Source: Clostridiaceae bacterium BRH_c20a (GTDB lineage: Bacteria > Bacillota > Peptococcia > Peptococcales > BICA1-8). Taken from it: 64,000 nt of DNA. The notes under the pieces are model-generated. The model worked only from the letters and a program-made list of their open reading frames with translations, ran no database searches and was not told the DNA's origin. The translations under genes and the position numbers were made by a program. Position 1 is the stretch's first letter; the number at the start of each line of letters is the position of its first letter. The stretch spans positions 88,541 to 152,540 of the forward strand of contig LADT01000026.1 in NCBI GenBank assembly GCA_000961765.1, given 5' to 3'. Positions 4,935 to 50,397 of this stretch are shown one piece after another.

Positions 4935-5657
4935 ATGGACGCCAAGACTAAAGAATTGGTAGAGCATATTACAACATCTATTATGTTTGATAAAAATACT
5001 TTAGATGGTGAAGGGATGTCACCCGCTATTTGGAATAAGTATCTTTGTTTGAGTAACGGAAAAAAGGTTAGAAAAAAAGGAGATTACCTATTAGAGATAG
5101 GTGAAAATATAAATGGAGTTTATTTTGTGAAAAAAGGGAGAATTGTTTCAAATATTTTAGGTAAAGAAGGTATCATTAAAACCGTTGGTATAGTAGATGA
5201 AAGCTGCTTATTTGGAGAACAATTTATTTTTCACCGGCAGCCAGCGTTGTTCGAAGCATTTGTATTAGAAGATGCTGAAGTTTACTTTTTTCCTAAAGAC
5301 ACTATTCTGGATATTATGCGTAAGGACTTTGAAATAAATATCTTTATTATGAAATCCCTGGCTATCAAGTCAAGAATGCTTTGTAGTCAAATTGAAGATG
5401 TGTGTATTCGTAATATTGCTCAAAATATTTGTAAGATTTTGTACTCTATTTGCTGTTATGAAGAAAAATCTGGAGAGATTATTGGCGATATTCTTATTCA
5501 GCTGTCCCACCAGGATTTAGCTAATATGCTGGGTTCCCATCGTGTAACAGTTACAAAAAACATAAACCTGCTTAAAAAACAGGGTATTTTGGATTATAAA
5601 TATGAGAGAATAATAATAAAAGATAGACATAAATTAAAAAAGATCGCCTTTGAATAA
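4935..5657 (+). CDS. Crp/Fnr-family transcriptional regulator
   Basis: N-terminal cNMP-binding-like beta-roll (GDYLLEIGENINGVYFVKKGRI) and a C-terminal HTH (SHQDLANMLGSHRVTVTKNINLLKKQG). Confidence 0.85.
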   Translation: MDAKTKELVEHITTSIMFDKNTLDGEGMSPAIWNKYLCLSNGKKVRKKGDYLLEIGENINGVYFVKKGRIVSNILGKEGIIKTVGIVDESCLFGEQFIFHRQPALFEAFVLEDAEVYFFPKDTILDIMRKDFEINIFIMKSLAIKSRMLCSQIEDVCIRNIAQNICKILYSICCYEEKSGEIIGDILIQLSHQDLANMLGSHRVTVTKNINLLKKQGILDYKYERIIIKDRHKLKKIAFE

Positions 5658-8344: not shown

Positions 8345-9556
8345 ATGAGTAATTACGATTTTATAATAATCGGAGGGGGACCAGCGGGGTTAACTGCTGC
8401 TATTTTCGGAGCCAGAGCTAGACTAAAAACTTTAGTTATCAATAAAGGGAGTATAGGTGGAATGGCTCATACGACACGGGAGATAGTAAACTATCCTGGA
8501 TATGGGCAAACAAGTGGTCCTCAATTAATGCTAGATTTCAAAAAACATGCTGAAAAATTTGGTGCCCAGTTTATTAAGGATGAAGTTGTAGAAGTAGATT
8601 TTTTGCAAGATGAAAAATTAATTAAAACGAAAAAAGGAAAAGAATTCACTGCAAAAGCTGTTATTTTGGGATGTGGTACTCAGCCACGACTTCTTAATAT
8701 TCCAGGTGAAATAAGGTTAAGAGGTAGTGGTGTTGCATATTGTGCTACCTGTGATGCAGAATTCTTTGAAGGTGAAGATGTAGTTGTAATCGGTAGTGGT
8801 GATCAAGCAATTGAAGAGGGTATGTATATTGCTAAATTTGCAAAGAAGGTTACTGTTATCGTTCTTCATGATGAAGGAATACTTGATTGCAACAAGATTA
8901 GTGCTGAAAAAGCCTTTAATAATGAAAAAATGAAGTTCATATGGAATTCAACAATTGAAGAAGTATTAGGCGATTCTAATGTTGAAGGTGTTAAAATTAA
9001 GAATATTAAGACAGGAGAAAGTACTAAGTTGGCCTGTCAAGGTGTATTCTTTTTTGTAGGAATGATCCCATCTACTAGTTTCCTGGAAAACAGTGGAATT
9101 GAGATGGATCAAAAAGGCTATATTCCAGTCGATAAGTCAATGGAGACTAACATTGAAGGTATTTATGCTGTGGGTGATAACAGAGTTAAATATTTAAGAC
9201 AAGTCGTATCAGCAGCAGGTGATGGTGCGACAGCAGCAGTTGCCGCTGAAAGGTATATCGAAGAGTTAAATGATTTTAAAAAGAATGTAGTTGAAAAGGA
9301 GAATGTTATACTACTATTTTTTAGTCCTATGATAGAAGAAAGCTTAGCTTTTAACACTGTTTTAGAAAAGGTTGTTAGTGAAAATGGATACAACTATAAA
9401 ATAGTTAGAGTGGATATTTCAAGAAAGAAAATGTTAGCTGAAAAATATGGTGTGGAAGAAACACCCTCCGCTATTGTTTTAAATAAAGGTGTAATTATAA
9501 AAGGACTAAATTGTGTTATAGATGAAGTAAAATTAAAATCTCAGTTGGAAATATAA
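8345..9556 (+). CDS. Thioredoxin-reductase-like FAD/NAD(P) oxidoreductase with a C-terminal Trx-fold extension
   Basis: GGGPAG dinucleotide motif, redox CATC (AYCATCDAEFF), GSGDQAIEEG NAD(P) motif, and GD motif AVGD. About 90 extra C-terminal residues lack a CxxC. Confidence 0.8.
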   Translation: MSNYDFIIIGGGPAGLTAAIFGARARLKTLVINKGSIGGMAHTTREIVNYPGYGQTSGPQLMLDFKKHAEKFGAQFIKDEVVEVDFLQDEKLIKTKKGKEFTAKAVILGCGTQPRLLNIPGEIRLRGSGVAYCATCDAEFFEGEDVVVIGSGDQAIEEGMYIAKFAKKVTVIVLHDEGILDCNKISAEKAFNNEKMKFIWNSTIEEVLGDSNVEGVKIKNIKTGESTKLACQGVFFFVGMIPSTSFLENSGIEMDQKGYIPVDKSMETNIEGIYAVGDNRVKYLRQVVSAAGDGATAAVAAERYIEELNDFKKNVVEKENVILLFFSPMIEESLAFNTVLEKVVSENGYNYKIVRVDISRKKMLAEKYGVEETPSAIVLNKGVIIKGLNCVIDEVKLKSQLEI

Positions 9557-18635: not shown

Positions 18636-18795
18636 TTGGACATTCCTCAACCAAAAGATGAATCCTCAAATGTAGTGTCCCCCATTCGTTGGGGACATTC
18701 CTCAACCAAAAAATGAATCCCCAAATGTGGTGTGTCCCATTCGTTGGGGACATTCCTCAACCAAAAATGAATCCCTAAATGAGGTGTGTCCCCCT
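18636..18795. repeat. Three tandem ~55-bp units of a GGGGAC-type palindromic (REP-like) element
   Basis: Units start at 18638, 18691 and 18747. Each reads GGGGACATTCCTCAACC...GTGTCCC. The third unit folds as GGGGACA/TGTCCCC plus CCTCA/TGAGG. Confidence 0.85.
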
Positions 18796-18912
18796 CCTTT
18801 GAATAAGCTTTTTCTTTTGTGACAAAATATTTTATAGACATTGATTATTTATTTCCAAAAAGCTTTTAAAAAATTATAAAAACTAAAAAAATACAAAAAG
18901 GTTAAAAGTTAG

Positions 18913-39524: not shown

Positions 39525-40469
39525 ATGTCTGGGGACGGTCCTTTGACACAACATAATGAAAATATGATAGAATAGCTCTAGGGGGTGATCTAATGGCAAG
39601 GACGAGTAGACAAATAAGTCAGACTGGTTTTTACCATGTAATGATGCGGGGGAATGAGAAAAGGGAAATTTTTAAAGATGACAGGGACCGGGAGAAGCTA
39701 TTAGGTATCATTAGGGAAAAGAAAAAAGAAGTAGTTTTTGACCTATATGGATATTGCTTAATGAATAACCATGTTCATTTATTAATTAGGACAGAAAATA
39801 TTGCAGGTGTAATGAAAAGAATTAATACCAGTTATGCTTGCTTTTTTAATAAGAAATATAATCGAGTAGGCCATTTATTTCAGGACAGGTTTAAGAGTGA
39901 GACTATTGATGATGAAAAACATCTTATGGCAGTTGTAAGATATATACATAATAATCCTTATCAGGCGGGTATGGTAAGTGATATCTTAGAATATCCATGG
40001 AGCAGTTATATTGATTATGTAAGTAAAAGGGATAATAAGAATAATGACCTGGTAGATACCTGGGAAATACTCTCTTTATTTTCCCAGGAGAAAAACAAAG
40101 CTATTGAATATTTCAAGGAATTTTCCAACAAGGAGAATGACGATCAATTTATAGATATAAAGGAAGATGATTCTGACGTGTTTAGTTTTCAGGAGACGGA
40201 TAACTCTTTGGTGGTGGAAAAATACTTAAAGGACAATAACCTATCAATTACTGATTTAAAGACTGATTGTAATAGGCATTATCTGCAGGAAGTCATATTA
40301 AACCTACGAAAAAAAACTCAGCTGTCAATTCGAGGAATAGCCAATCTTTTGGGATTTAACAGAGGAATTGTGCAAAGAATGGTATCACAAAAACCTGTTG
40401 CCCCAGAGGATGAGGGGCAAGAAAAATGAGTATTCATGTCAAGCGTGTCAAAGGACCGTCCCTAGACAC
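39525..40469 (+). mobile_element. RAYT/IS200-like (Y1 transposase) unit bounded by 25-bp inverted GGGACGGTCCTTTGACAC ends
   Basis: Left end 39525..39549 is aTGTCTgGGGACGGTCCTTTGACAC. Right end 40445..40469 is GTGTCAAAGGACCGTCCCtAGACAc. There are 2 mismatches. Confidence 0.75.
39593..40429 (+). CDS. REP-associated tyrosine transposase (IS200-like Y1 HUH) with a C-terminal HTH
   Basis: HUH motif NHVHLLI and YIHNNP tyrosine motif. The C-terminal LSIRGIANLLGFNRGIVQRMV is HTH-like. Confidence 0.85.
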   Translation: MARTSRQISQTGFYHVMMRGNEKREIFKDDRDREKLLGIIREKKKEVVFDLYGYCLMNNHVHLLIRTENIAGVMKRINTSYACFFNKKYNRVGHLFQDRFKSETIDDEKHLMAVVRYIHNNPYQAGMVSDILEYPWSSYIDYVSKRDNKNNDLVDTWEILSLFSQEKNKAIEYFKEFSNKENDDQFIDIKEDDSDVFSFQETDNSLVVEKYLKDNNLSITDLKTDCNRHYLQEVILNLRKKTQLSIRGIANLLGFNRGIVQRMVSQKPVAPEDEGQEK

Positions 40470-41372
40470 GCGTTGGTCAACCGCCGGGATACTCTTGTTA
40501 AAGATGGTATTCGGCTGAAAAACGGTTTGCATGAGCAGGTTTCTGTTGCTTACCCAAGCTACCATAGATTTTTTTGTGATATTGACCGGAAGACAGCGCT
40601 GTATTTTTGGAAACACTATCCGTCACCCATCTATCTGCGGAATAAACCCATTGATGAACTATTTGAAGAATTTAAAGCGATTGCGTCCAATACAACGAAA
40701 AGTAAGATTGAATTGATATTTGAATGTGTCCATAATGATGGTGATACGATACGGGAATATCAGGAATCAAGGGATTTTATCACCAAAAGCCTTGCACGTT
40801 GTCTTGAACAGCAAAAGGAAGAAATAGCCCTGGTCGATTGTGAAATCGAAAGGATGCTGAGCTATTTTGACTATAAACTAACAACAATACCGGGCGTAAA
40901 TATTGCCACAGCAAGCAAGCTGATTGCCGAAATCGGTGACATACGCCGCTTTCCAAGTGCTGATAAACTGGCTCGTTATGCAGGAATTGCACCAATAAAG
41001 TTTAGTTCCGGCGGCAAAGGCAAGGAGGAAAGCTCAAAACAAGGTAACCGTGAGTTGCACGGATTATTCTATTTTCTGGCGGTATCCATGGTCACGGTTC
41101 CAAAGACAGGAAAGCCGAATCAGCCTATATTTTACGCCTATTATCAGCGTAAAATCAGCGAAGGCAAAACGAAATCACAGGCGTTGGTCTGTATTATGCG
41201 CCGATTAGTAAACATTGTTTACGGCATGATGAAGAACAAGACGGAGTATCGTCCCTTTGTAGTTGAGGATCATGTTGTAGAAGAACAGTAATGATTGTTT
41301 TAGCACAGCGTTGAAATTATACCATAATTTTTGAAATTAAATACGGATTCCCAACCTTAATCTGAGATATAG
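40470..41372 (+). pseudogene. IS110-family recombinase, 3' two-thirds only (copy A), plus its short right end
   Basis: Starts abruptly after the RAYT right end. Has ...IPGVNIATASKLIAEIGDIRRFPSADKLARYAGIAPIKFSSGGKG...GNRELH (Tnp_20-type Ser domain) with the stop at 41291. ORF 40368..41291 is a chimera with the RAYT 3' end. Confidence 0.8.
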
Positions 41373-41711
41373 ATTCTTCCACCTGAGGGCGCGGGTGAGG
41401 CTAGTAACGCTTTCAAATATGACTTGCTTAAGAAAGACCTTAAGTACACTGAAAAGTATGGCTTGGAGGCAAGAAAAGAGTTACCTGACGGAAGAATCCG
41501 CTATTATGGAGAAATTCAACCAGCATCAAAACCAGGGGAAATGGTTGGTAGAAGGATTGTACAGGAGCTTAATCCTGCCAATGGAAATGTGAGAGCATGG
41601 AACGAAACTCTAGATGGTGCGGGTAGAATAAGGCAGGTTAGACCGCAACTAGGTCCTAATAAAACGCATTATACATTTGACCAATTCGGAAATTATACAG
41701 GGAAGTGGTGA
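41373..41711 (+). CDS. Orphan polymorphic-toxin C-terminal domain (family not recognised)
   Basis: The frame is open from 41373 directly after the IS110 right end. There is no credible own start (the ORF track uses TTG at 41424). Followed 4 nt later by a small acidic ORF, matching toxin/immunity geometry. Confidence 0.45.
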   Translation: MLPPEGAGEASNAFKYDLLKKDLKYTEKYGLEARKELPDGRIRYYGEIQPASKPGEMVGRRIVQELNPANGNVRAWNETLDGAGRIRQVRPQLGPNKTHYTFDQFGNYTGKW

Positions 41712-41715
41712 TAAC

Positions 41716-41994
41716 ATGCAGAGCCCCACAATTGAAGAGCTCATTATGAAGCTACAGCAGGTATTAGAAGGGGGACTTAGTCGAGAAGAGGTTTCAGATT
41801 GGGCTATGAAAGCCTCGGAAGTATATGAACGTGAGAGTTCGCTGAGTCAGCATGAGATTTCCCTTTGGAAATGTCTTGACGTTGTTGGTGGTATTGACTT
41901 AAAAGACTCACCATCGGAGTACCTTCACAATGAGCAAGATATTAAAGGGTGGATAACCAAGTTTAAGCAAATGAAGGATTCAAACCAATCCTAA
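41716..41994 (+). CDS. Putative cognate immunity protein
   Basis: ATG at 41716, 4 nt after the toxin stop and preceded by GGAAGTGGTG. 92-aa acidic helical protein. Confidence 0.5.
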   Translation: MQSPTIEELIMKLQQVLEGGLSREEVSDWAMKASEVYERESSLSQHEISLWKCLDVVGGIDLKDSPSEYLHNEQDIKGWITKFKQMKDSNQS

Positions 41995-42036
41995 GTAATC
42001 ATGCTGAAGGGAGTAAATAGGGGTCAGCAACGCCCC

Positions 42037-42569
42037 CTATATGTTCCTTGACAAATGCGGATCCTGCAGTTTATAAACTCCAGTTACGACTCCATCGGCG
42101 AAATCTCGACCCTGAGAGAAACCGTTCCCCGACCCGCATTGCGGGGCGGTGTGAGCCGGAGCGGGGGTGCTTTGCAACCCCGCTCCTTTAACCTGCATCA
42201 TTTTCGACCCCATGGTTCACCCTGTGATTGAGGGGATGAAGCCACATTTTGGGGCTGCATTTTGAAGGGAAAGGTTTTTTCGCAGAAGTCGCCAAATCCG
42301 GTTTCATTTTTTCCGAAGGGACAAACACCTTATGGAGGCAGCTAAAACGCAACACAGGGGCACACGGTGGCTCACGGCGTTAAGTATTTGAACGCCGGAT
42401 AACGAGTATATTTATGACTGCTGGTAGCGAACGTATAAATCGGCTTGTACCCCATGGTTCATGGTGGACCATAGATTTACAGGAAATTCTGTTCTATGAT
42501 AAAATTTGTGCCAGAGGGGGTTTAAGGGGGTAAGAAATTATCCCGGAAAAATCCCTCATTTTCTTTTTC
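42037..42569 (+). ncRNA. Candidate large structured RNA in the 5' leader of IS110 copy B
   Basis: ORF-free and GC-rich, with hairpins at 42129..42149, 42158..42186, 42220..42234 and 42375..42397 that covary with copy C. A GC stem plus T-run lies at 42514..42569. The ends are not defined. Confidence 0.45.
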
Positions 42570-42787
42570 TGCATATGACAGTTTTGATACAAACGCAGAA
42601 ATGACTTGCAATACTTTTCAGACAGAGTTAACATCACACAACAATAGTGAAAATAACCTGTTTGAAACTGTAAGTCTTGCGGTAGATAGGCTGTCGCGCC
42701 CTTGCGGGTCTGAAAAGACTAACGCTATCATCTGAGGTTGCCGGTACTTGGGCTTTATGTGGATAGCAGGACAAAAGAAGGGATGAT

Positions 42788-43051
42788 ATGCAGAGAAGAG
42801 AAAATTACCTCTATGTCGGTATGGACTTGCATAAGGACACCCATACCGCTGTTCTGGTAAATTGTTGGAATGAGAAATTAGACGTGATTGTTATTGAAAA
42901 CAAGCCCAGCGAGTTTAATAAGCTGGCAAAACGAGTAAACAGGATGGCTGTAAAGCTGGGACTATCCCCAATTTACGGTTTGGAAAACGCCTACGGCTAC
43001 GGCAGAAGCCTTGCTGTCTGGCTGATTGAAAAAGGGTACATAGAAAAGTAA
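42788..43051 (+). pseudogene. IS110-family recombinase, N-terminal DEDD domain only (copy B)
   Basis: YVGMDLHKDTHTAV...GLENAYGYGRSLAVWL. The reading frame ends where a 120-bp repeat begins (43048). Confidence 0.8.
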
Positions 43052-43167
43052 ATCTTGGGGTCAGGCTCACTATTAAACATAACATTAAAATTGAAGTACT
43101 AAAAAGCACCTATAAAACCTATGACGGTTATCTAAAGAGATAGCCGTCTTTTTTTAGAAGAAGCAAT
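43048..43167 (+). repeat. 120-bp direct repeat, copy 1 (identical to 45658..45777)
   Basis: Base-for-base identical by inspection. Contains the terminator-like hairpin GACGGTTATCT-aaag-AGATAGCCGTC followed by T7. Confidence 0.95.
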
Positions 43168-43490
43168 GTGTCTAGGGACGGTCCTTTGACACAGCGAAAT
43201 AGAAATATGATTGAATACTCTGGGAAGCTATTAGATATCAGAAGGGAAAAGAAAAAGGAAGAAGTTTTTGACATATATGCATATTGCTTAATAGATTAAC
43301 CATGTTCATTTATTAATAAAGGATTATAAGAAGAATAACATGGTAGATACCTTGTTAAAGAAAGATTGTAATAGGTATTATCTGCAGGAAGGCATAGTAA
43401 ATCTAAGAATAAAAACTCGACTGTCAATTCGAGAAATAGCTGATTATTTGGAATTGAACAGAGGGGTTGTGCAAAGAGTGGTGTCACAAC
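43168..43490 (+). pseudogene. Degraded second copy of the RAYT unit (left end retained, internal deletions, no right end)
   Basis: GTGTCTAGGGACGGTCCTTTGACAC at 43168..43192. Collinear remnants (…HVHLLI…, …DCNRYYLQE…LSIREIADYL…) have lost the start codon and central region. Confidence 0.75.
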
Positions 43491-43674
43491 TATCTTCCTC
43501 AATCAAAACAGGGCTTCCGGGTAAGCAGAAACTTACCCCCGGAGGAAATGGCAAAGGGCAAGAAAAATCTAACGCTAAAGGCGGCGGCAAACCTGCCAAA
43601 ATCTTTGCCATTGACCCGATAGCAAGTGTATTTGACAAAGATAGACCGGTGATGATATTCACTAAAGGTGATAA

Positions 43675-44475
43675 AGGCGGCGGAAACTCCAATGGTGGAG
43701 GGAATTCCGGTGGAAATTAAAGCTTCCACTATTAGAAGAAACAATTGAACTGCCGGCTTATCTTACGGAACCCACCCGGTACGTAAGCTACACCTATGAT
43801 GAATCAGGCAACCGTACTGGTAGGACTACCGATCAGGGAGAAGTCAGCTATACCTATGATAATGGCAACCGCCTCATCAAAGCAGGTGAAACAGCATACT
43901 ATTATGATGATAACGGCAATCTGGAATTCAAAGAAACAGCAGACGGAGGAACAGAATACCGATATGATGCCGCCAATCGACTGACAGCAGTATACTTTGC
44001 CGATGGAACAGATTTAAAATACCATATAGGAGAAGATAAGGTGCTAGCCCGGAAGATGTTTGGCTATCACGGACAAAAAGAACAAGGCAAACCGACCCTG
44101 CAGACCAGAGGCGGGTTGATGTACTACTCCTTTGATGCTTTGGGCAATGTAACAGATCTCACAGACAGGACAGGGGAGATAACAGCCCAGTAGTTCCGGT
44201 TTGACGCATTTGGGGGCATGTATGCCGGAACCTTGGGCCCCTATAATCATATGGGCTTGACCGGCAAGGATTATGATGCCGAGAGCGGTTTCATAGACTT
44301 CGGTTTCCGCTGGTATGATCCCCAGGCAGGCAGGTTCACTCAGCCCGACACCTATAAAGGGAACATTTTTAATCCCCTGACCCAGCATCCCTATGCCTAT
44401 GTAGGCAATAACCCAGTGTTATGTTTTTTAGGAGGTAAGAACAAAAACATGGTGAACAGCAACAAATCGGTATAG
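43675..44475 (+). pseudogene. Rhs/YD-repeat core fragment with an in-frame TAG (44191) and a truncated 3' end
   Basis: YTYDESGNRTG...YTYDNGNRL...YYYDDNGNL...RYDAANRL...DALGNVTDLTD...YDAESGFIDFGFRWYDPQAGRF...YVGNNPV, all in one frame. Confidence 0.75.
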
Positions 44476-44555
44476 AAAGGCCACGTCCAATAAAATCCGG
44501 GAACGTGGCCTTTTTAATGTCTATAAAGATTGGTCGGTTTGTTTAGGCTGTAAAA

Positions 44556-44954
44556 CTATCTCTCAACTTCTTCATCTTCTTCATCTGCCAAAATATTGAC
44601 TTCCTCGACTTCGCGATATAAAATTTCATCAATTTGATTTAAAAGCTCAGGTAAACTTTTTGTAATCGTTCCCCAAAGCACCGCAAAATCAATGTTTTCA
44701 TAGTCATGAACAATTTTATTTCTCATGCCTTTGATACTTTTCCAAGGAATATAAGAATATTCTTCCTGAGTGCTTAAACCTATATCCTTTGCCAGTTCAC
44801 CGATTTGGGAAATGGTAAAAGCACAAGCAGAAATTGTTTTTTTATCATTCATAAACTGTTCAAAGGAAAGTCCATATGTATACTGAGCTACATCGTTGAT
44901 GTATCCGCTTATTTTTTGCAGGATAATCCTATCCTTACCTATCATATAAGACAA
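44556..44954 (-). CDS. hepT: HEPN-domain (DUF86/HepT-like) toxin
   Basis: Rx4H motif GMRNKIVHDY. Overlaps the upstream MNT gene by 20 nt. Confidence 0.85.
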   Translation of the reverse strand: MSYMIGKDRIILQKISGYINDVAQYTYGLSFEQFMNDKKTISACAFTISQIGELAKDIGLSTQEEYSYIPWKSIKGMRNKIVHDYENIDFAVLWGTITKSLPELLNQIDEILYREVEEVNILADEEDEEVER

Positions 44955-45243
44955 TACCCTCCCGTTCTACTGCGGAGCAAATGGTCGCATTCCTGCTCAA
45001 TTCGGATATTTCAAACAAATCTACACGTTTGTTAAGTTGTGTTGTAATATCCTCTAGCACACCATAGAAAGCCATATTTAAAAGCTCACCCTTGCTGTCA
45101 ATAACAATATCAATATCGCTTTGATCTGTTGCGTTACCTTTTGCATAAGACCCAAACAATATGGCGCGATATACAGGGGCGGCCTCAAAAACGGGACGGA
45201 GCTTTGATCTTATTTCATTGATTTGATATATTTTTTGCTCCAT
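44935..45243 (-). CDS. mntA: MNT-type nucleotidyltransferase antitoxin (MntA-like)
   Basis: GSYAKGNATDQSDIDIV (GSx10DxD) motif. The start at 45243 follows GGTGAG; the ORF is open to 45261. Confidence 0.85.
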   Translation of the reverse strand: MEQKIYQINEIRSKLRPVFEAAPVYRAILFGSYAKGNATDQSDIDIVIDSKGELLNMAFYGVLEDITTQLNKRVDLFEISELSRNATICSAVEREGIVLYDR

Positions 45244-45262
45244 ATTCTCACCACTTTGCATT

Positions 45263-45292
45263 ATTCTATATATATAATATCATATATAGAAT
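45263..45292. promoter_or_regulatory. 11-bp-arm palindrome upstream of the MNT/HEPN operon (candidate operator)
   Basis: ATTCTATATAT-N8-ATATATAGAAT. Confidence 0.45.
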
Positions 45293-45657
45293 AATTATTC
45301 ATCGAAAAAAATCGCAACTTCTTCGAATAACTTGCTTTCTTGCAGTGCTTTTACAATTAATTGTCTTGCAATTGATATTTTATCATCTTTTATTATACCA
45401 TTTGCAAAAAGAAAAATACAAAGGGGAGCGCAGGGACGCCGTCAATGTCATCAACTTTAAATGTAAATTATTTACAGACATAGCTTTCTATTTAATGCAT
45501 TCTTTGTTCTTACTAGGAATTTCCTTCTTGGAAATTGCCGCTGCTTTCTTATTGGAATGCAACATTTAGCTACTTGCTCCATTATGTCTTTAAAAAACAG
45601 TGGGGACGGTACTTTTTGTTTGAGAGTTTAATGAAATACTAGTAATGTCGAGTACGC

Positions 45658-45777
45658 GTAAATCTTGGGGTCAGGCTCACTATTAAACATAACATTAAAA
45701 TTGAAGTACTAAAAAGCACCTATAAAACCTATGACGGTTATCTAAAGAGATAGCCGTCTTTTTTTAGAAGAAGCAAT
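45658..45777 (+). repeat. 120-bp direct repeat, copy 2
   Basis: Identical to 43048..43167. Confidence 0.95.
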
Positions 45778-45778
45778 A

Positions 45779-47320
45779 GGGAGGGATGAACTGTATGATA
45801 AAGCCGGAAGAATGGCCAACGTCATAGCCGATGGGCAGACAACTACCTATACCTATTATGACAACGGCAGCAAACATCAGGTTATTTATCCAATTGGGGC
45901 AACCGAAGAATACACCTATTATGATAACGGCATGCTCCAGACCTTGGTCAACAAAAAAGCTGACCAGGCAATAATTGATGCATATACCTATACGTATGAT
46001 GAATCCCATAACCTGACTGCCAAAGAAGATGCCAGGGGGGTTACCACTTATACCTATGACGACCTAAACCGCCTGGAGACGGTGACCGAACCCAGCAGTA
46101 AAATTACCTCATATACCTATGACGGTGCAGGAAACAGGCTGACACAGGTAGAAGACTACCAGGAGAACAGCATTGTCACCAACTACACATATAATGAGCA
46201 GAACCGGCTTCTAAGACAGGTTAGCCAGTTGAATGGAGAAATCATTCAGAACGAAGTTAGCGAATATACCTATGATGAACTGAACCGGATGATAACTGCC
46301 CTAACCCCCAACGGGACCAATATCACCAACAGCTACAACGGCGATGGTCAGCGGGTAAGCAAACAGGTCAACAGCGACATGACCCAATATGTCTATATAG
46401 GCGACAAAGTAGTCTTGGAATTGGACAGTTCTGGGAACCAAGCTGCCCGCAACGTCCTGGGAACCGGCATGATCTCCCGGACAGTAGACGGCACCACCCT
46501 TTACTACATGTACAACGGACACGGAGATGTAACAGCCCTGATAGATTCCACAGGGGTCATCCAGGCCACATACTATTACGATGCCTTTGGCAACATCCTG
46601 GAATCCACTGGGGAAGCAAACAATCCCTATACATATGCAGGTTACCAGTATGACAAAGAGACAGAATATTACTACCTAAATGCCCGATATTATGATGCAC
46701 TGACAGCCCGCTTTATTACCGAAGATACCTATAGGGGAGACCCCAGAGATCCGTTGACCTTGAATCTCTATACCTATGGCATAAACAACCCAATTAGATA
46801 TATCGATCCAACGGGTCACTATATAGACGAAAGCAAATTAGGTAAAATAGCAAGTGATCCATATTATTCAAGTGTAAAACTAACCTATTCACCAGGAAAA
46901 GGCGATAAACTGACAATAACCACAGCAGATGGATTTACCTTTTCCGTGACAGATAACCGTCGTGGTATATATATAGACCCGACAAATATAGTACATGATA
47001 TTTCAGGTCATGGTAATGTAAAGAGCAGCAGTGATATTAAATCAACGGCTACCAGTACAGTTCAGCCTAGTGCAGCTAGCCCATATGTTCCACCGGTTAC
47101 TAATACTACGAAGTCTAATCCAAGTACAACTATTAAACCCATTACTGTTACACCAAAAGTAGTCGCACCAATAGCAGATACCCGTACAGCTAATGAGATA
47201 AGCAAATCTGTGACAACGGATAACCTTAATAAGTATGGTGCGGTGGGATATGTCCAGGAGATGGGTAATGGTGACCCAACCATGTGGTCTGTTGCGCAGA
47301 ACTTTGGTGGTGGTCTATAA
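45779..47320 (+). CDS. Rhs/YD-repeat protein, C-terminal core plus Ser/Thr/Pro-rich linker (5'-truncated; ends at an in-frame TAA)
   Basis: YD repeats begin right after the 120-bp repeat (…DELYDKAGRMANV…). The core-end motif is NNPIRYIDPTGH. The stop at 47318..47320 is in the same frame as the downstream toxin ORF. Confidence 0.8.
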   Translation, partial: GRDELYDKAGRMANVIADGQTTTYTYYDNGSKHQVIYPIGATEEYTYYDNGMLQTLVNKKADQAIIDAYTYTYDESHNLTAKEDARGVTTYTYDDLNRLETVTEPSSKITSYTYDGAGNRLTQVEDYQENSIVTNYTYNEQNRLLRQVSQLNGEIIQNEVSEYTYDELNRMITALTPNGTNITNSYNGDGQRVSKQVNSDMTQYVYIGDKVVLELDSSGNQAARNVLGTGMISRTVDGTTLYYMYNGHGDVTALIDSTGVIQATYYYDAFGNILESTGEANNPYTYAGYQYDKETEYYYLNARYYDALTARFITEDTYRGDPRDPLTLNLYTYGINNPIRYIDPTGHYIDESKLGKIASDPYYSSVKLTYSPGKGDKLTITTADGFTFSVTDNRRGIYIDPTNIVHDISGHGNVKSSSDIKSTATSTVQPSAASPYVPPVTNTTKSNPSTTIKPITVTPKVVAPIADTRTANEISKSVTTDNLNKYGAVGYVQEMGNGDPTMWSVAQNFGGGL

Positions 47321-47407
47321 AAGAGTGGAAAGGATGCTGTAACTGGAATTGTAAACATAGTCACCACAAATCCAGTAGAGACAGCTAAGAACATCAGTAA
47401 CGCAATT

Positions 47408-47938
47408 TTGAATTATAAAGATACCGGAAAGGCAATTTGGTATGAAGTTTCTAATGCTTTTTATGAGGATGTAATCAATGGAGATGCGGATTCAACAGCA
47501 TTTTTTACAGGGAGAGCAGTTGGTGAAATCGTTCTCGTTGTTGTAGGAACAAAGGGTGTCGAGAAAGCAGTAAAAGTTGTTAAAGGTGCTAATGCCGTTA
47601 AGGTGAGTAATGTTACCCAGGGCGCGGGTAAAGGTTTTGATAAATTTAATGCTCTTAAAAAGAACCTCGGGCCTGCCGGGGAAGGAAAAGCGTGGCATCA
47701 TGTTGTCGAACAGAGTCAAATCCAGAAATCAGGGTTTAGCCCGCAACAAATTCATAATACCAATAATGTAGTTGCTGTTGACTCAGCGACTCATGCGAAG
47801 ATAAGCGGGTATTATAACAGTATTGATGCAAGTTTATCAGACACTATGAGAGTTCGGGATTGGCTTGCAGGACAAGGTTTTGAAACGCAATATCAATTTG
47901 GAATGGATGTCTTAAAGAGATTCGGGGTGACGAAATGA
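47408..47938 (+). CDS. Toxin module: pre-toxin (TG-like) region plus an HNH/EndoVII-fold nuclease of AHH/WHH type
   Basis: The frame is open from 47321, same frame as the Rhs core. KAWHHVVEQ...NNVVAVDSATHAKISGYY fits the AHH/WHH nuclease pattern. Confidence 0.6.
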   Translation: MNYKDTGKAIWYEVSNAFYEDVINGDADSTAFFTGRAVGEIVLVVVGTKGVEKAVKVVKGANAVKVSNVTQGAGKGFDKFNALKKNLGPAGEGKAWHHVVEQSQIQKSGFSPQQIHNTNNVVAVDSATHAKISGYYNSIDASLSDTMRVRDWLAGQGFETQYQFGMDVLKRFGVTK

Positions 47939-48303
47939 AGAAAAATATATCACCACAATCATTAATTGAGCAATATATTAATGCTGGAATAATAATGACA
48001 GAAGCGTTGCCAAACGGTGATTATAAGACAAATAATCGAGAAGCAAAAAAGCTAAAAAAAATAAAAACTGACTTTTTAGAAAATAATTTGGATTTAGCGA
48101 AGCAAGTTTTCGCTGAAGTCATGAAGTCAGAAAATGACAAAGCACGCTCCATAGCGGCAGCGGATGCTCTAAGGCTAAACATACTGATTGAACAAGCTAT
48201 TGATGTTTTGGAAGATGTTGCTAAACGTGCAGATATTATCGGATTCGGAGCGGAAACATCGCTGAAGATTTGGCGTGGAGAGTATCCGGGAAAGACACTT
48301 TAA
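47935..48303 (+). CDS. Immunity protein (DUF2019-like helical repeat)
   Basis: ATGA start/stop overlap with the toxin. A 122-aa helical protein resembling DUF2019-type immunity proteins. Confidence 0.6.
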   Translation: MKKNISPQSLIEQYINAGIIMTEALPNGDYKTNNREAKKLKKIKTDFLENNLDLAKQVFAEVMKSENDKARSIAAADALRLNILIEQAIDVLEDVAKRADIIGFGAETSLKIWRGEYPGKTL

Positions 48304-48384
48304 TGAGAGGTGTACCTTTGCAGACACCCTATAACTTACGATATAACGCTGTATTTTAATAATAACAGCCACCTGCAAGGTGAA

Positions 48385-48900
48385 CCTTGACAAATTAACA
48401 GCCACCCTTTGACAAACGAAGGTTGCTTGTTGAAAGCCATAAGCGGTCGGCATTGCCGGCCGCTGTGAACCGGCAGGTGCGCCCAAAGGTGCACCCGCCT
48501 TTAACCTGCATCATTTTCGACCCCATGGTTCACCCTGTAAACAGGGATGATTAAGGGCAATTTGCTACCGAATAATTCATGCGATGATTTCCGGCACAAA
48601 GCCGTCAAATTCGGCCTCTTTTCCGATGGATGGGCAAACACCTTATGATGGCTATAAAAATTGAACACAGCGGCACACGGTGGCTCACGGCATTAAACAT
48701 TTGTGTGCCGGATAACGAGGGCATATATGAAATGCACAGCTTTTGCAGACTGCCAGTAATGAACATATAAATCGGCTTGTACCCCATGGCTCATGGTGAA
48801 CCATGGATTTACAGGAAATCTGTTCTATGGTAAAATTTGTGCCAGAGGGGGGTTTAAGGGGGTAAGAAATTATCCCGGAAAAATCCCTCGTTTTCTTTTT
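48385..48900 (+). ncRNA. Second, diverged copy of the structured leader (IS110 copy C)
   Basis: Hairpins at 48443..48463, 48472..48499, 48533..48546 and 48688..48710. Conserved blocks at 48500..48538 and 48672..48691. Stem plus T-run at 48845..48900. Confidence 0.4.
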
Positions 48901-49038
48901 CTGCATATGACAGTTTTGATACAAGCGCAGAAATAACTTGCAATACTTTTCAGACAGAGTTAACATCACACAACAATAGTGAAAATAACCTGTTTGAAAC
49001 TGTGAGTCTTGTGGTAGATAGGCTAGAGAAGGGATGAT

Positions 49039-49094
49039 ATGCAGAGAAGAGAAAACTACCTCTATGTCGGTATGGACTTGCATAAAGACACCCA
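49039..49094 (+). pseudogene. IS110-family recombinase stub (first ~18 codons, copy C)
   Basis: MQRRENYLYVGMDLHKDT, then homology stops. A hairpin carrying GGGGACGGTTCT follows at 49097..49125. Confidence 0.75.
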
Positions 49095-49293
49095 AAGGAA
49101 GCGAGGGGACGGTTCTGCCGCTTCCGCGCTTCTTTATTTTTGATAAAAATCTTGCAATATATTTGATAACGTAATTTCAGACTAACCATACCACTTTCTT
49201 TATGTATATAGATTAAAGGTCAATATTTTTATTCTTTTTAAGTTACTTCTCACATATATCTTTTACTGCAAAGAAAATTGAGGAGGGATAAGT

Positions 49294-50397
49294 GTGAGTG
49301 GTAAGTTAAGGGAGTTTTACCCGGGAGGTAATACTTCATATGGTTTTTATTCTTTCTACGACTTCATAATTGATAAGGATGCAACCCGTATCTTTTGTAT
49401 CAAAGGGGGACCTGGGGTAGGCAAGTCAACCTTTATGAAGGCTATCGGCCAGGTTATGCTGGAAAAAGGCTTTGATGTTGAACTTCATAACTGCTCTTCC
49501 GATAATAACTCTATTGATGGTCTAGTTATCCCCGCATTAAAGATTGCTTTGATTGATGGTACAGCACCCCACATAGTTGACCCTAAAAATCCTGGTGCTG
49601 TAGATGAGATTATCCATCTGGGGGATTATTGGAATGAAGAGGGAATACGGGCAAATAAGTCAGAGGTACTTTCCTCAAATGCCAGAGTCGGCCGACTTTT
49701 TAAGATTGCTTATAGCAGTCTTAAGGAAGCTAAAGTTGTCCATGATGAATGGGAAAGCTACATTACAGAGAGCATGGATTTTGCCCCAGTTAACAAGATT
49801 ACCCGCTATGTTGCCAACGAAGTTTTTGCTGATGTAGAACCTGACTTTAGCCGAGTTGCCAAGGCCAGGCACTTATTTGGGAGTGCTATAACACCCAAGG
49901 GCGCTACTAATAAACTGGATAGTATTTTATTAGAAGTTGAAGATGTATACATTCTTCGAGGGGAGCCAGGAACAGGCAAGTCTAGCTTTATTGGAAAAAT
50001 GTTAGAACGAGCTCAGGAAATGGGGATTGATACGGAAATATATCATTGCCCTTTAGATCCTGAGAAATTTGATTTTTTAGTTATTCCCAAGCTGAAAGTT
50101 GCATTTATAAATGGAACTGACCCCTTAAAGGTAAATTTAAGTAAGTTTACGACAACAGAAATTGATTTTGACCAGTTTCTAGATCCCGATAAACTAGATA
50201 CCTATGAAAAAGAAATTGATTCCTGCAAAGAACGTTTCTGGGATGCATACCACCGAGGGATTGAATATATCAGTCAAGCTAAAAAGGTACATGATGAGAT
50301 GGAGGAATACTATATTCCTAATATGAATTTTGCAGCCATTAATGCCAAAAGAGACGAAATATTAAAGAGGATTTTAAAATATGCGAAAGAATTTTAG
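49294..50397 (+). CDS. Double P-loop NTPase of unknown function
   Basis: Two Walker A motifs (GGPGVGKST, GEPGTGKSS) in a 367-aa protein. Confidence 0.6.
   Translation: MSGKLREFYPGGNTSYGFYSFYDFIIDKDATRIFCIKGGPGVGKSTFMKAIGQVMLEKGFDVELHNCSSDNNSIDGLVIPALKIALIDGTAPHIVDPKNPGAVDEIIHLGDYWNEEGIRANKSEVLSSNARVGRLFKIAYSSLKEAKVVHDEWESYITESMDFAPVNKITRYVANEVFADVEPDFSRVAKARHLFGSAITPKGATNKLDSILLEVEDVYILRGEPGTGKSSFIGKMLERAQEMGIDTEIYHCPLDPEKFDFLVIPKLKVAFINGTDPLKVNLSKFTTTEIDFDQFLDPDKLDTYEKEIDSCKERFWDAYHRGIEYISQAKKVHDEMEEYYIPNMNFAAINAKRDEILKRILKYAKEF

Follow-up and report, generated by a model that had tools for sequence, protein, structure and literature searches.

A decayed IS110-type unit with an oriT-like region and a predicted bridge-type guide RNA, probably a bridge-RNA element variant that swaps toxin cassettes

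A leader without open reading frames precedes an IS110-type recombinase start in a stretch of 64,000 nucleotides from Clostridiaceae bacterium BRH_c20a (contig LADT01000026.1), which was analysed as a whole and is referred to as the window. We regard this leader (41995-42787) as likely to be the non-coding control region of a decayed composite IS110-type mobile unit of ~2.2 kb plus cargo. It appears to consist of two halves of different nature, a division that we hold with reasonable, though far from complete, confidence: an oriT-like half (~42077-42400) and a half that would encode a bridge-type guide RNA (~42512-42787). The unit is probably a variant of the bridge-RNA IS110 elements, an RNA-guided and mobilizable swapper of toxin cassettes.

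Anatomy of the leader and its two copies

The features that delimit the leader and its second copy are as follows.

42017-42787, + strand: first copy of the leader, ending at the recombinase ATG (42788)
42017..42040, + strand: boundary hairpin ATAGGGGTCAGCAACGCCCCCTAT, at which the conserved backbone sets in sharply, scored as terminator-like
42048..42077, + strand: promoter-like P1 (TTGACA, 18 nt, TATAAA), read from the sequence, with the -35 kept in relatives
42450..42474, + strand: palindrome CCATGGTTCA-TGG-TGGACCATAG, a predicted helix that abuts the -35 of P2
42476..42505, + strand: promoter-like P2 (TTTACA, 18 nt, TAAAAT, with an upstream TG), 10/12 matches in a promoter scan and kept in relatives
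48386..49093, + strand: copy B, a dead remnant recognized by alignments, with P2 kept

A sequence-only reading of this DNA had described the leader as free of ORFs, GC-richer than its surroundings and present twice. The first of these statements held, as 41995-42787 contains no ORF of at least 60 aa (the longest have 58, 58 and 55 aa). A 58-aa ORF at 42055-42231 was considered as a small protein and rejected; it is lost in copy B and in the relatives because of indels. The higher GC content applies to the 5' half (0.55-0.56 at 42000-42299 vs ~0.40 around it) and not to the 3' half. The diverged second copy was found at 48386-49038, with the recombinase gene cut after ~18 codons. The two copies share, as had been proposed, the 39-nt block (41 nt at 100%, 42185-42225 = 48498-48538), a 20-nt block starting at 42359 and 48672, and a 3' part with an identity of 89-97%. 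The segment of ~85 nt that is present in one copy only belongs to the 42-kb copy and is kept in all relatives, so that the 48-kb copy carries a deletion. Copy B lacks both the guide loop, which was deleted, and the boundary hairpin, and keeps only the first codons of its recombinase gene (49039-49093). Both units in the window are truncated, inactive remnants.

Homology of the backbone starts at the hairpin at 42017 in the 25 copies that were mapped, each with different left flanks, which places the element boundary (42017) upstream of all the hairpins of the leader. This bears on the suggestion that the upstream covarying part is an independent repeat or structured RNA family that was hit by the IS. 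The hairpin module does also occur without a recombinase (see below), but the conserved element starts upstream of it, with the same hairpin and unrelated left flanks, in 25/25 mapped copies. Moreover, the order of the module and its distance to the recombinase gene are constant in >60 units, and the guide loop matches site J rather than the module. We consider an IS-targeted family very improbable.

The -10 element of P1 did not pass the rule of the promoter scan. Comparison with Rfam gave no match anywhere in the window at the gathering threshold and nothing in the leaders at E up to 10 (41500-49500); no covariance-model match was obtained there for ROOL, GOLLD, HEARO, OLE, the group II intron or other Rfam families. 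The middle of the leader has been lost in three relatives by deletion between two copies of CCCCATGGTTCA.

The recombinase and the neighbouring unit

The leader is followed by a recombinase fragment and preceded by the remains of another unit.

42788..43047, + strand: N-terminal fragment of the recombinase of copy A, 87 codons, Pfam DEDD_Tnp_IS110, broken at 43048
40368..41291, + strand: upstream unit, C-terminal fragment of its IS110-family recombinase (Pfam Transposase_20, E = 5e-21)
41292..41384, + strand: right-end spacer of the upstream unit, short type, ending ...TTCCACCTG, assigned by homology to relatives
41385..41396, + strand: site J, GAGGGCGCGGGT, encoding E-G-A-G; recombination is proposed to take place here, with AG (- strand CT) as core
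41397..41994, + strand: variable cassette, by its translations a toxin C-terminal-domain ORF in frame with J (to 41711), then an immunity-like ORF (41716-41994)
47618..47629, + strand: variant site J', CAGGGCGCGGGT, codons Q-G-A-G, in an RHS-family gene upstream of copy B, at the toxin-domain start

The claim that the leader ends at an IS110-type recombinase start was borne out: the 87-aa fragment that begins with the ATG at 42788 matches DEDD_Tnp_IS110 (Pfam, E = 2e-4) and is 76-98% identical to the N-termini of relatives. The recombinase ORF is open, with at least 380 codons, in 79/104 of the relatives' copies, and the leader directly adjoins the recombinase ATG in >100 units. A full-length relative of the recombinase matches the IS621 transposase structure 8wt6 (E = 7e-9, C-terminal domain only), and a related lineage gave Pfam matches to both IS110-family recombinase domains. 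Judged by these matches, the recombinase belongs to the IS110 family as a distant member.

The fragment at 40368..41291 aligns with the 3' ends of the relatives' recombinase genes; the 5' part of this gene was lost beside an IS200-like element. The right-end spacer is 73-93% identical in the loci L001, L002, L008, L010, L012, L013, L015, L017 and L018, and the matches stop within a few bases past J, except for the match in L017. The right boundary of the unit thus lies just after J.

The guide-RNA half and its match to site J

The 3' half of the leader contains the predicted guide RNA, in which the following elements were recognized.

42512..42787, + strand: bridge-type RNA domain (RNAalifold on 44 sequences)
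42695..42702, + strand: 5' guide CGCGCCCU (CGNNCCCU), complementary to + strand AGGGCGCG, J positions 2-9
42704..42725, + strand: distal hairpin of the guide loop (GCGGGUCUGAAAAGACUAACGC), with changes on both sides in 6/7 pairs and 99.3% of the cells paired
42727..42737, + strand: 3' guide AUCAUCUGAGG (CAUCUGAGG), same sense as + strand CA(C/T)CTGAGG, i.e. the right end plus J positions 1-4

The predicted fold combines a G-rich, U-run-bearing hairpin (42514-42569) with an arm that contains variable segments (42598-42680) and with nested helices (42657-42661/42766-42770, 42681-42684/42745-42748 and 42689-42691/42740-42742). The fraction of paired cells was 98.9% (n = 44 sequences) compared with 89.8% in shuffles (0/500), and changes on both sides occurred at 11 pairs (RNAalifold, 44 sequences). 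The stem and T-run at 42514-42569, which had been taken as a possible end of a transcript, are indeed conserved. A simple terminator is nevertheless doubtful, because the stem directly follows P2 and the U-run (42561-42568) is predicted to pair with the ribosome-binding region of the recombinase (42776-42783).

The sequence-only reading had proposed a bridge-type guide in the leader, with the upstream covarying part as its scaffold. A guide appears to be encoded, but in another place: it is the loop at 42695-42737, which belongs to the ~85-nt segment missing from the 48-kb copy, and not the upstream hairpins, where no guide-type covariation with the flanking DNA was found. The alleles CGCCC, CCCCC, AACCC and TCCCC of the 5' guide track the J alleles CG, GG, TT and GA in ~100 units. 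The 5' guide is perfectly complementary (8/8) to the upstream J in 40/62 units (shuffled mean 14.6, max 25) and to the downstream J in 49/71 units (shuffled mean 16.2, max 27; 2000 shuffles); the upstream J is the better fit in 8 units, the downstream J in 10. Mutual information between guide and J is highest at the predicted columns, with a complementarity of 0.82-0.87. The 3' guide has the same sense as the + strand and would therefore pair with the - strand. It matches the terminus of the right-end spacer, with agreement to the unit's own right end at 10/10 positions in 61/71 units and at 9/10 in the rest (wobble pairs allowed); in L009 a variant 3' guide (UACCUGAGG) goes with a variant right end (ACACCTGAGG). 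The two guides thus pair with opposite strands of a sequence of 14-15 bp, CAYCTG-AG-GGNNCG, and share AGG; on the other strand this reads CCT and includes the CT core of IS621. The guides of the IS621 bridge RNA likewise address opposite strands and overlap on a CT-containing core (PMC11208160).

Complementarity of the 5' guide to the sense strand of J would also be expected if the loop were an antisense regulator of the toxin mRNA at the EGAG codons and not a guide for DNA recombination. The 3' guide, however, has the sense of the mRNA and can pair only with the opposite DNA strand, the two-strand logic overlapping on a CT-containing core is the signature of a bridge RNA (PMC11208160), and the loop is linked to a recombinase gene. 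An antisense role is, on these grounds, exceedingly unlikely.

The loops had been expected to match both a junction and a target. One loop matches J, and no second guide loop was assigned. Mutual information and complementarity scans of the 3' and 5' domains against both J sites gave no second guide, and no consistent partner was obtained for k-mers of the variable arm (V1, V2, W) against both J sites +/-40 nt or for a second xxCCCU motif covarying with J. A target guide showed no consistent match to the left flanks of the main genes or to the unit's own leader and right end. A candidate loop around hairpin H4, with the predicted target ACGGTGG-CT-CGTTATCC, had no consistent partner and was rejected. 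A second arm at the position of the IS621 target loop varies between units, and no matching DNA was found for it.

Site J in toxin genes and cassette arrays

Site J is found after every unit and, in addition, inside toxin genes with no recombinase upstream. Its right half and core (TG-AG-GGNNCGGG, codons E-G-A/T/S-G) occur in many polymorphic toxin genes, exactly at the start of the variable toxin domain; codon 3 has a fixed G at its wobble position and encodes A, T or S. The agreement of main-gene sites with the guide-matched site is confined to its right half and the TG. Genes of this kind, with J and no recombinase upstream, are of the RHS, MuF-like, Phage_GPD/VgrG-like, DUF4280 and other types, and their J stands directly before deaminase, DUF6883 or weak DUF4258-like (below the Pfam cutoff) toxin domains. 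In L009, the J that follows a unit directly precedes an EndoU domain. Cassettes equivalent to that of the window carry EndoU nuclease, deaminase, DUF4258 (weak, below the Pfam cutoff) or DUF6883 domains elsewhere; the window cassette (41397..41994) itself gave no Pfam match. The variant J' is translated as ...NVTQGAGKGFDKF..., with RHS repeats upstream. No match to the PT-TG pre-toxin domain (PF14449) was obtained at EGAG in nine J-containing proteins.

Homology between genomes follows the same boundary. A toxin cassette common to L010 (after a main gene) and L004 (after a unit) becomes homologous exactly at J, 33 inter-genome homology blocks begin 0-3 bases upstream of the first base of J, and one block extends from J to J (L040:741-3920 = L050:7320-10498, 90.5% identical). 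Tandem arrays of units, 2.2-5.3 kb apart and separated by toxin/immunity cassettes, were found in 22 loci, with copies within one genome only 75-83% identical. Because shared cassettes go with either neighbouring backbone, a unit can be parsed as cargo-left or cargo-right; pairwise identities of cassettes vs backbones are ambiguous on the cargo side, and so is the fit of the guide to the two J sites (8 vs 10 units). Homologous recombination between backbones is conceivable as a route of cassette exchange.

A simple IS model, in which the element extends from the hairpin to J and was inserted between cassettes, was rejected because the left flanks are variable and have no half-site. A broader version would see an ordinary bridge-RNA IS that was inserted repeatedly in a conserved sequence of toxin loci, the cassettes not being cargo and the arrays and shuffling arising by homologous recombination between 2.2-kb backbones. 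The sharing of cassettes with either backbone and the identity breakpoints inside backbones are in keeping with this, as are the age and divergence of the backbones within one genome, and both the targeting of repeats and the formation of expanded or tandem loci have been described for IS110 elements (PMC11208160; bioRxiv 10.64898/2026.08.14.744561). Yet the left flanks of the backbones have no half-site and are not conserved, whereas the site for both guides is intact at every right end, which fits a unit with J on both sides. Furthermore, the 12-nt J is too short for homologous recombination although homology blocks start exactly there, and it is kept at synonymous positions in unrelated delivery genes. 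We judge the ordinary IS to be improbable, and continue with the composite unit.

The oriT-like half and its link to MobL relaxases

The 5' half of the leader is made up of the following features.

42077..42400, + strand: oriT-like module (H1/H2 covariation; >300-nt homology to MobL-side regions)
within 42077..42400, + strand: CGACYCC direct repeats, part of the module
42129-42149, + strand: hairpin H1, loop ATT (covariation)
42158-42186, + strand: hairpin H2 (covariation)
42187-42225, + strand: 39-nt block with AACCTGCAT and CGACCCCATGGTTCA, invariant, directly following H2
42220-42234, + strand: H3
42359-42378, + strand: 20-nt block
42375-42397, + strand: H4

Compensatory changes in the stems of H1 and H2, noticed earlier between the two copies, were confirmed with 87 homologues: 94.6% of the cells were paired compared with 74.8% after shuffling (0/500), and slid controls reached at most 58.5%. 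Copy B carries the other H1/H2 allele (48443-48463 and 48476-48495), with its block at 48500-48538 and its palindrome at 48782-48806. The hairpin alleles of H1/H2 were not associated with the guide allele. The G-T pairs had been held to be tolerable only as G-U in an RNA of the + strand; the wobbles are on that strand, but hairpins in the single-stranded DNA of a transferred strand fit equally well.

The 39-nt block together with H1 and H2 was found in 74 metagenome or viral loci, of which 18 have a MobL relaxase gene nearby on the opposite strand. A tally of linkage over the 74 loci gave 17 linked to a relaxase, 20 to a recombinase and none (0/74) to both. The relaxase start lies 618-637 nt from the block in 14 loci and farther away in 4 more, with a small ORF between block and relaxase gene where ORFs were examined. 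Homology of the module to the non-coding region on the MobL side spans >300 nt in contigs without a recombinase. The palindrome at P2, in which the CCATGGTTCA of the 39-nt block recurs, occurs only in recombinase-bearing loci and is absent from the MobL loci. No relaxase was found in the window or in 75 genome loci, and no homologue of the module in PLSDB plasmids. In combining direct repeats, inverted repeats and an invariant block, the module has the classic layout of an oriT. The homology of the upstream module to a region fixed beside MobL genes points to an oriT, and from synteny and architecture ~42077-42400 is best read as an orphan oriT.

Part of these observations would also be accommodated if the whole leader of ~770 nt were one large structured RNA. 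The upstream hairpins would then be a scaffold or regulatory leader, for instance the missing target-binding part, rather than an oriT at the DNA level, and the MobL-linked homologues would be the same RNA serving conjugation genes. The P1-like promoter lies upstream, the covariation of the helices is strong, the + strand showing U-G wobbles, the domain is closed by a predicted long-range helix (GTGAGC 42151-42156 with GCTCAC 42371-42376), pairing of the block through its CCAUGGUUCA with the palindrome at P2 is conceivable, and a second guide loop was not found elsewhere. In contrast, guide-type covariation with flanking DNA is lacking in the upstream domain, the module occurs without a recombinase at a fixed distance from opposite-strand relaxase genes and has the repeats and invariant block of an oriT, three relatives manage without the middle of the leader and no Rfam family matches. 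A single large RNA is in our view unlikely, less so than the ordinary IS discussed above; an RNA role for the oriT-like module is conceivable, because P1 would transcribe across it.

Proposed mechanism and significance

Taken as a whole, an oriT-like half and a guide-RNA half of a composite IS110-type unit provide the best explanation of the leader, and we think it a fairly probable one. In the mechanism that we infer, which takes in transcription, recombination at J, the direction in which cassettes move and, at the module, nicking or mobilization, a sigma-70-type promoter (42476-42505) would drive a bridge-type RNA of ~280 nt, and the complex of recombinase and RNA would recombine J sites. 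Recombination between two J sites would excise or insert a circle consisting of toxin domain, immunity gene, leader and recombinase. A new toxic end would thereby be fused in frame to the resident delivery gene, and the old one displaced downstream into an orphan array. The module would be a homologue of the origin of transfer that conjugative elements of clostridia carry beside MobL genes. The unit itself encodes no relaxase; a resident conjugative element could nick its excised circle and transfer it in trans. The compensatory changes would preserve the hairpins in the transferred strand, here the + strand with its T-G wobbles. No circle junction, transcript or pair of empty and filled sites was observed.

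More tentatively, the units may represent a family of self-contained toxin-swapping cassettes in Bacillota, each with a toxin C-terminal domain, an immunity gene, an orphan oriT for hitch-hiking by conjugation and an IS110-type recombinase, whose single-loop bridge RNA would address a 12-15-bp EGAG site of unrelated delivery genes (RHS, MuF, VgrG-like, DUF4280 and others). If so, any such unit could re-arm any such gene in frame, and the family would amount to an integron-like system that is guided by RNA and specialized in interbacterial weapons.

The usual explanation for the exchange of polymorphic-toxin ends is homologous recombination at conserved junction motifs. In the present case the motif, EGAG, is itself the guide-matched sequence and is common to unrelated delivery systems, so that dedicated RNA-guided swapping becomes directly testable. 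For the bridge recombinases, the units suggest a natural system that apparently works with one guide loop on an att-like site, with a strand logic mirrored relative to IS621, a natural target in frame within a coding sequence, and cargo. The tie between an IS110-type unit and an orphan oriT suggests a route by which small units could pass between distant Clostridia. For annotation, covarying GC-rich hairpins beside a transposase are not necessarily RNA.

Comparison with known systems

The units resemble IS621 and its IS110 bridge RNA (Durrant et al. 2024, PMC11208160; 8wt6) in the recombinase with DEDD and Tnp domains, in the RNA (here predicted) encoded in the non-coding region 5' of the recombinase gene, in the internal loop, which pairs through each of its sides with a different DNA strand around a CT-containing core, and in the covariation of guide and site across orthologues and the covarying distal hairpin. 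They differ from it in several respects. One guide loop is assigned here rather than two; relative to the gene the strands are used in mirror image, the 3' side matching the tnp-sense strand at the right end; the site is common to element end and target, i.e. att-like; the leader has ~770 nt compared with ~180-250 nt; the kinship of the recombinases is remote, with a match confined to the C-terminal domain (E = 7e-9); and the copies are diverged and arrayed instead of near-identical and dispersed. The units are accordingly different from classical IS110 elements, which are compact (~1.2-1.6 kb), consist of a recombinase and non-coding ends, and occur as near-identical dispersed copies.

Expanded IS110 loci with cargo (bioRxiv 10.64898/2026.08.14.744561; 10.64898/2026.08.31.748434) share with the present units the cargo and tandem modules, boundaries that match a single donor half, and insertion beside resident copies. 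Their cargo is mostly plasmid-derived DNA and resistance genes, unlike that found here, and the text of bioRxiv 10.64898/2026.08.14.744561 makes no mention of toxin cassettes or an in-frame coding target.

The oriT-like module is comparable to the MobL oriT of pLS20 (PMC5313138), which is likewise non-coding, is separated from the relaxase gene by a few hundred bp with small accessory genes, and has GC-rich inverted repeats, direct repeats and a palindrome; the likeness to the pLS20 oriT lies in architecture and not in any established similarity of sequence. Elements with only an oriT are a known class (iOriT, bioRxiv 10.64898/2026.01.13.699239), and as in these hitchers the same sequence is copied here in elements without a relaxase. 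Unlike pLS20 and iOriT, the carrier is an IS110-type unit, and we found no description of such a carrier.

With the displacement of Rhs/CdiA C-termini, the units have in common a conserved junction motif before a variable toxin domain (VENN or DPXGL there, EGAG here). Downstream orphan cassettes and arrays beside recombinases are likewise seen in Rhs/CdiA orphan arrays, integrons and recombinase-associated immunity arrays. Exchange in these systems is ascribed to homologous recombination or to tyrosine recombinases with attC-like sites. In contrast to Rhs/CdiA and integrons, each cassette here has its own, putatively RNA-guided DEDD recombinase, and the junction motif is the guide-matched site.

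The leader as part of a conserved recombinase unit

The sequence-only reading had described 41995–42787 as an ORF-free leader of an IS110-family recombinase, present twice. An ORF scan showed no ORF of 60 aa or more in this region; its 3′ end is the ATG of an 87-codon IS110-family recombinase fragment, and the second copy (48386–49038) reaches the same recombinase start codon. Alignment of the copies (copy A, from 42017, and copy B, from 48386; both + strand) confirmed identical blocks of 39–41 nt and 20 nt, a near-identical 3′ part and an indel of ~85 nt. The GC-richness claimed for the whole leader holds for its 5′ half (0.56 versus ~0.40 around). Rfam gave no match in the leaders. The recombinase of copy A is broken and stops at 43047, that of copy B is broken after ~18 codons, and a third unit is represented by a recombinase C-terminal fragment upstream of copy A (40368–41291). 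In the window, the units are dead remnants only.

An IS200-like (Y1_Tnp) element is found directly before this C-terminal fragment (39526–40429 region), and a partial second copy, 80–90% identical, directly after the N-terminal fragment of copy A (43169–43489). A perfect 120-nt repeat (43048–43167 = 45658–45777), which includes a terminator-like hairpin, lies on either side of RHS pseudogene fragments. The toxin locus is rearranged around the IS200-like elements and the 120-nt repeat. Directly 3′ of the copy B remnant, 49294–50397 codes for a 367-aa protein with two P-loop NTPase motifs, for which Pfam gave AAA_30 and many weak AAA-type matches. An Rfam match to porB RNA at 47749–47809 is weak, at 31.8 bits below the gathering score (35.1); it falls within the toxin ORF that precedes copy B and is probably due to chance. 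At 18638–18801 a 55-nt unit (GGACATTCCTCAACCAAAAGATGAATCC...) occurs three times in tandem, with 62–100% identity.

A search with the N-terminal recombinase fragment against one genome per species yielded 75 loci in Bacillota, including Thermincola, Desulfosporosinus, Pelotomaculum, Tepidibacillus and Lacrimispora. The entire leader is 77–84% conserved in close relatives. The homology in 25 copies starts at one base, at the hairpin ATAGGGGTCAGCAATGACCCCTAT (window 42017), with unrelated left flanks; the left end thus lies upstream of the covarying hairpins, and the leader is, as had been supposed, part of the conserved unit and not a flank. On the right, the homology stops just past the 12-nt sequence GAGGGNNCGGGK, a proposed recombination site here called J. 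The shared left start and the right end at J delimit a backbone of ~2.2 kb, composed of the hairpin, the ~770-nt leader, a recombinase of ~420 aa, a short spacer and J.

A guide loop that matches J

Alignment of the 340 nt 5′ of the ATG from 92 units revealed the conserved order GGCUGU-CG[NN]CCCU-U-(covarying hairpin)-U-AUCAUCUGAGG-UUGCCGG. The corresponding features of copy A are as follows.

Features of the guide domain in copy A (+ strand)
42476–42505: promoter-like site P2 (TTTACA, 18 nt, TG-n-TAAAAT), 5′ of the guide domain
42695–42702: 5′ side of the guide loop, CGCGCCCU
42704–42725: hairpin of the guide loop
42727–42737: 3′ side of the guide loop, AUCAUCUGAGG

The 5′ guide is complementary to + strand AGGGCGCG (J positions 2–9), and the 3′ guide is the same as + strand CA(C/T)CTGAGG (spacer end and J positions 1–4) and is therefore able to pair with the opposite strand only. 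The two pairings share AGG (CCT on the opposite strand); the bridge RNA of IS621 has the same two-strand, overlapping-core guide logic (PMC11208160). The guide alleles CGCCC, CCCCC, AACCC and TCCCC accompany the J alleles CG, GG, TT and GA, and the 3′ guide variant UACCUGAGG accompanies ACACCTGAGG. In an unbiased scan, only the guide columns joined high mutual information and a complementarity of 0.77–0.87. Of 62 units, 40 have a 5′ guide perfectly complementary over 8 nt to the upstream J, and 49 of 71 have one perfectly complementary to the downstream J (means of 2000 shuffles, 14.6 and 16.2; maxima, 25 and 27). In 61 of 71 units the 3′ guide agrees with the unit's own right end at all 10 positions, wobble pairs allowed. 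The loop caps a set of nested helices with covariation support (98.9% of cells paired versus 89.8% in shuffled controls, 0/500), the structure being drawn from the same alignment. Copy B has no guide, because the loop sits in the ~85-nt segment missing from it. The proposal of a guide RNA in the leader is thus supported for a bridge-type loop (42695–42737) and not for the covarying upstream hairpins: no position of the upstream domain showed guide-like covariation with the flanking DNA.

The IS621 RNA has two loops (PMC11208160), whereas here a single loop is linked to DNA. At the position of the IS621 target loop, the arm 42598–42680 has a covarying flanking stem and differs among units; it gave no consistent match in either J region, in its own unit or in the left flanks of main genes (toxin genes without a recombinase upstream). 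At the main-gene sites, the match is limited to the right half plus TG, which recalls the half-match recombination described for IS110 elements in recent preprints. The cargo of a unit may be the cassette to its left or the one to its right: the better fit of the guide is to the upstream J in 8 units and to the downstream J in 10, and shared cassettes were found beside either neighbouring backbone. Our preferred parse places J at both ends of a unit (cassette, leader, recombinase, spacer), because every right end retains an intact site for both guides and the left edge of the backbone has no half-site.

J in toxin genes and arrays

J is present within full-length main genes, always where the delivery part gives way to the toxic end. 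The loci (L numbers denote homologous loci from other genomes, metagenomes and viral collections) are listed below.

Main genes containing J
RHS proteins: L010, L046, L029, L003, L005, L013
MuF-like protein: L021
Phage_GPD/VgrG-like protein: L054 (deaminase domain begins 16 residues past J)
DUF4280 protein: L053

Several long proteins without Pfam matches also contain J. The bases left of J vary among main genes. Codon 3 of J always ends in G, whichever amino acid it specifies (A, T or S), which suggests a constraint acting on the DNA. One toxin cassette is found behind the main RHS gene in L010 and behind a unit in L004, with homology from exactly J. Over all loci compared, 33 homology blocks start 0–3 bases ahead of J's first base, and one block runs from J to J (L040:741–3920 versus L050:7320–10498, 90.5% identical). 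PT-TG was not detected at J with Pfam; the nearest remark found in the literature is that IS110 and other mobile elements are enriched near some PT-TG toxins.

Two or more units were present in 22 loci, spaced 2.2–5.3 kb. The Tepidibacillus locus L009 has three successive units (at 5194, 8041 and 11132), with gaps of 0.6–0.8 kb that each code for a pair of small proteins. Copies in the same genome are merely 75–83% identical, a divergence unlike that of a recently transposing IS. The sequence 3′ of J is variable and in every case continues the reading frame of the J codons E-G-A-G; the toxin domains recognised after units are an EndoU nuclease and DUF4258 (a weak, sub-threshold Pfam match). 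The window has the same pattern twice: J at 41385 is followed by ORFs to 41994 and then copy A, and the variant J CAGGGCGCGGGT (47618), within an RHS-family gene, by a toxin end, a small ORF and then copy B.

In Tepidibacillus and some relatives (L004, L005, L006, L009, L011, L014), the spacer of ~190 nt between the recombinase stop and J codes for a signal peptide plus linker (MRKKLPVLLLALIILLQAF...SEGAG) that is joined in frame to each orphan toxin domain of such loci. The window-type spacer has stop codons.

The upstream hairpins as a candidate oriT

The upstream hairpin half of the leader differs in nature from the guide half. The covariation noted for H1 (42129–42149, invariant loop ATT) and H2 (42158–42186) was borne out strongly across 87 copies, with 94.6% of cells paired versus 74.8% in shuffled controls (0/500) and at most 58.5% in slid controls. 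The hairpins have at least two alleles, independent of the guide allele. An exact-pattern scan for the 39-nt block gave 72 metagenome and 2 viral-collection loci, all with H1, H2 and the block, and only part of them with a recombinase: 17 of the 74 are relaxase-linked, 20 recombinase-linked and none both. A MobL-family relaxase gene (PF18555, E = 4e-36) lies nearby on the opposite strand in 18 loci, starting 618–637 nt from the block in 14 of them. Where ORFs were listed, a small ORF starts ~90–165 nt from the block, between block and relaxase; ParM-like, M23-peptidase-like and Fic-like genes surround the MobL loci. The window leader and the MobL-linked regions share >300 nt of homology, spanning CGACYCC repeats, H1, H2, the block and the 20-nt block.

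The oriT of pLS20, the reference for MobL relaxases, lies 865 bp from the relaxase gene with two small genes between, and has GC-rich inverted repeats, direct repeats and a palindrome (PMC5313138). The template strand here is the + strand, on which the hairpins tolerate T-G wobbles. Elements with only an oriT that use a helper relaxase are a recognised class, identified by similarity to relaxase-adjacent intergenic regions (bioRxiv 10.64898/2026.01.13.699239); 42077–42400 was found by the same route, through its likeness to a relaxase-adjacent non-coding region. The promoter-like site P1 lies upstream of 42077–42400, which may thus have a role as RNA. The homology next to MobL genes, the pLS20-like anatomy and the known oriT-only class lead us to read it as a putative orphan oriT. 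The sequence CCATGGTTCA within the block recurs as a palindrome abutting the −35 of P2, only in recombinase-bearing units; a role as operator for a relaxosome protein would be speculative.

In three leaders (L028:1734, L060:1631 and L067, unit at 9062) the 39-nt block is joined directly to the P2 palindrome; ~360 nt between its two direct copies of CCCCATGGTTCA are deleted and the guide loop is kept. A Thermincola relative (L001:3088–5629) has a 2.5-kb insertion with reverse-oriented ORFs between the oriT-like module and P2. ORFs ~620 nt past the block in L098 resemble, by eye, a group II intron reverse transcriptase. The module also lies beside DUF6076 proteins, with neither relaxase nor recombinase nearby (L122, L129, L133); these may be further oriT-only elements. 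A second IS110 lineage (L086, L088, L117, L137, L139, L142, L107, L078), 33–41% identical in the N-terminal region, has 416 aa and both Pfam domains, and the H1-H2-block module ~700 nt upstream of its start.

Proposed mechanism and relation to known systems

The most likely mechanism, as inferred from sequence comparison, is as follows. The recombinase, programmed by the P2 RNA, would synapse two J sites and exchange strands at the AG/CT core. Recombination of J with J within an array would release a circle carrying a toxin end, immunity gene, oriT-like module, guide RNA gene and recombinase gene; recombination of the circle with the J of a delivery gene would join the incoming toxin end in frame and displace the old end downstream. 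Through the orphan oriT, the circle could travel with a MobL-type conjugative element, which would fit the spread of 75–95%-identical units over distant genera.

Bridge RNAs (PMC11208160) and MobL oriTs (PMC5313138) have been described, as have, in two preprints, cargo-bearing and tandem IS110 loci with half-matches (bioRxiv 10.64898/2026.08.14.744561; 10.64898/2026.08.31.748434). The literature that could be searched gave no example of an IS110-type guide tied to a polymorphic-toxin junction motif and accompanied by toxin/immunity cargo plus an oriT.
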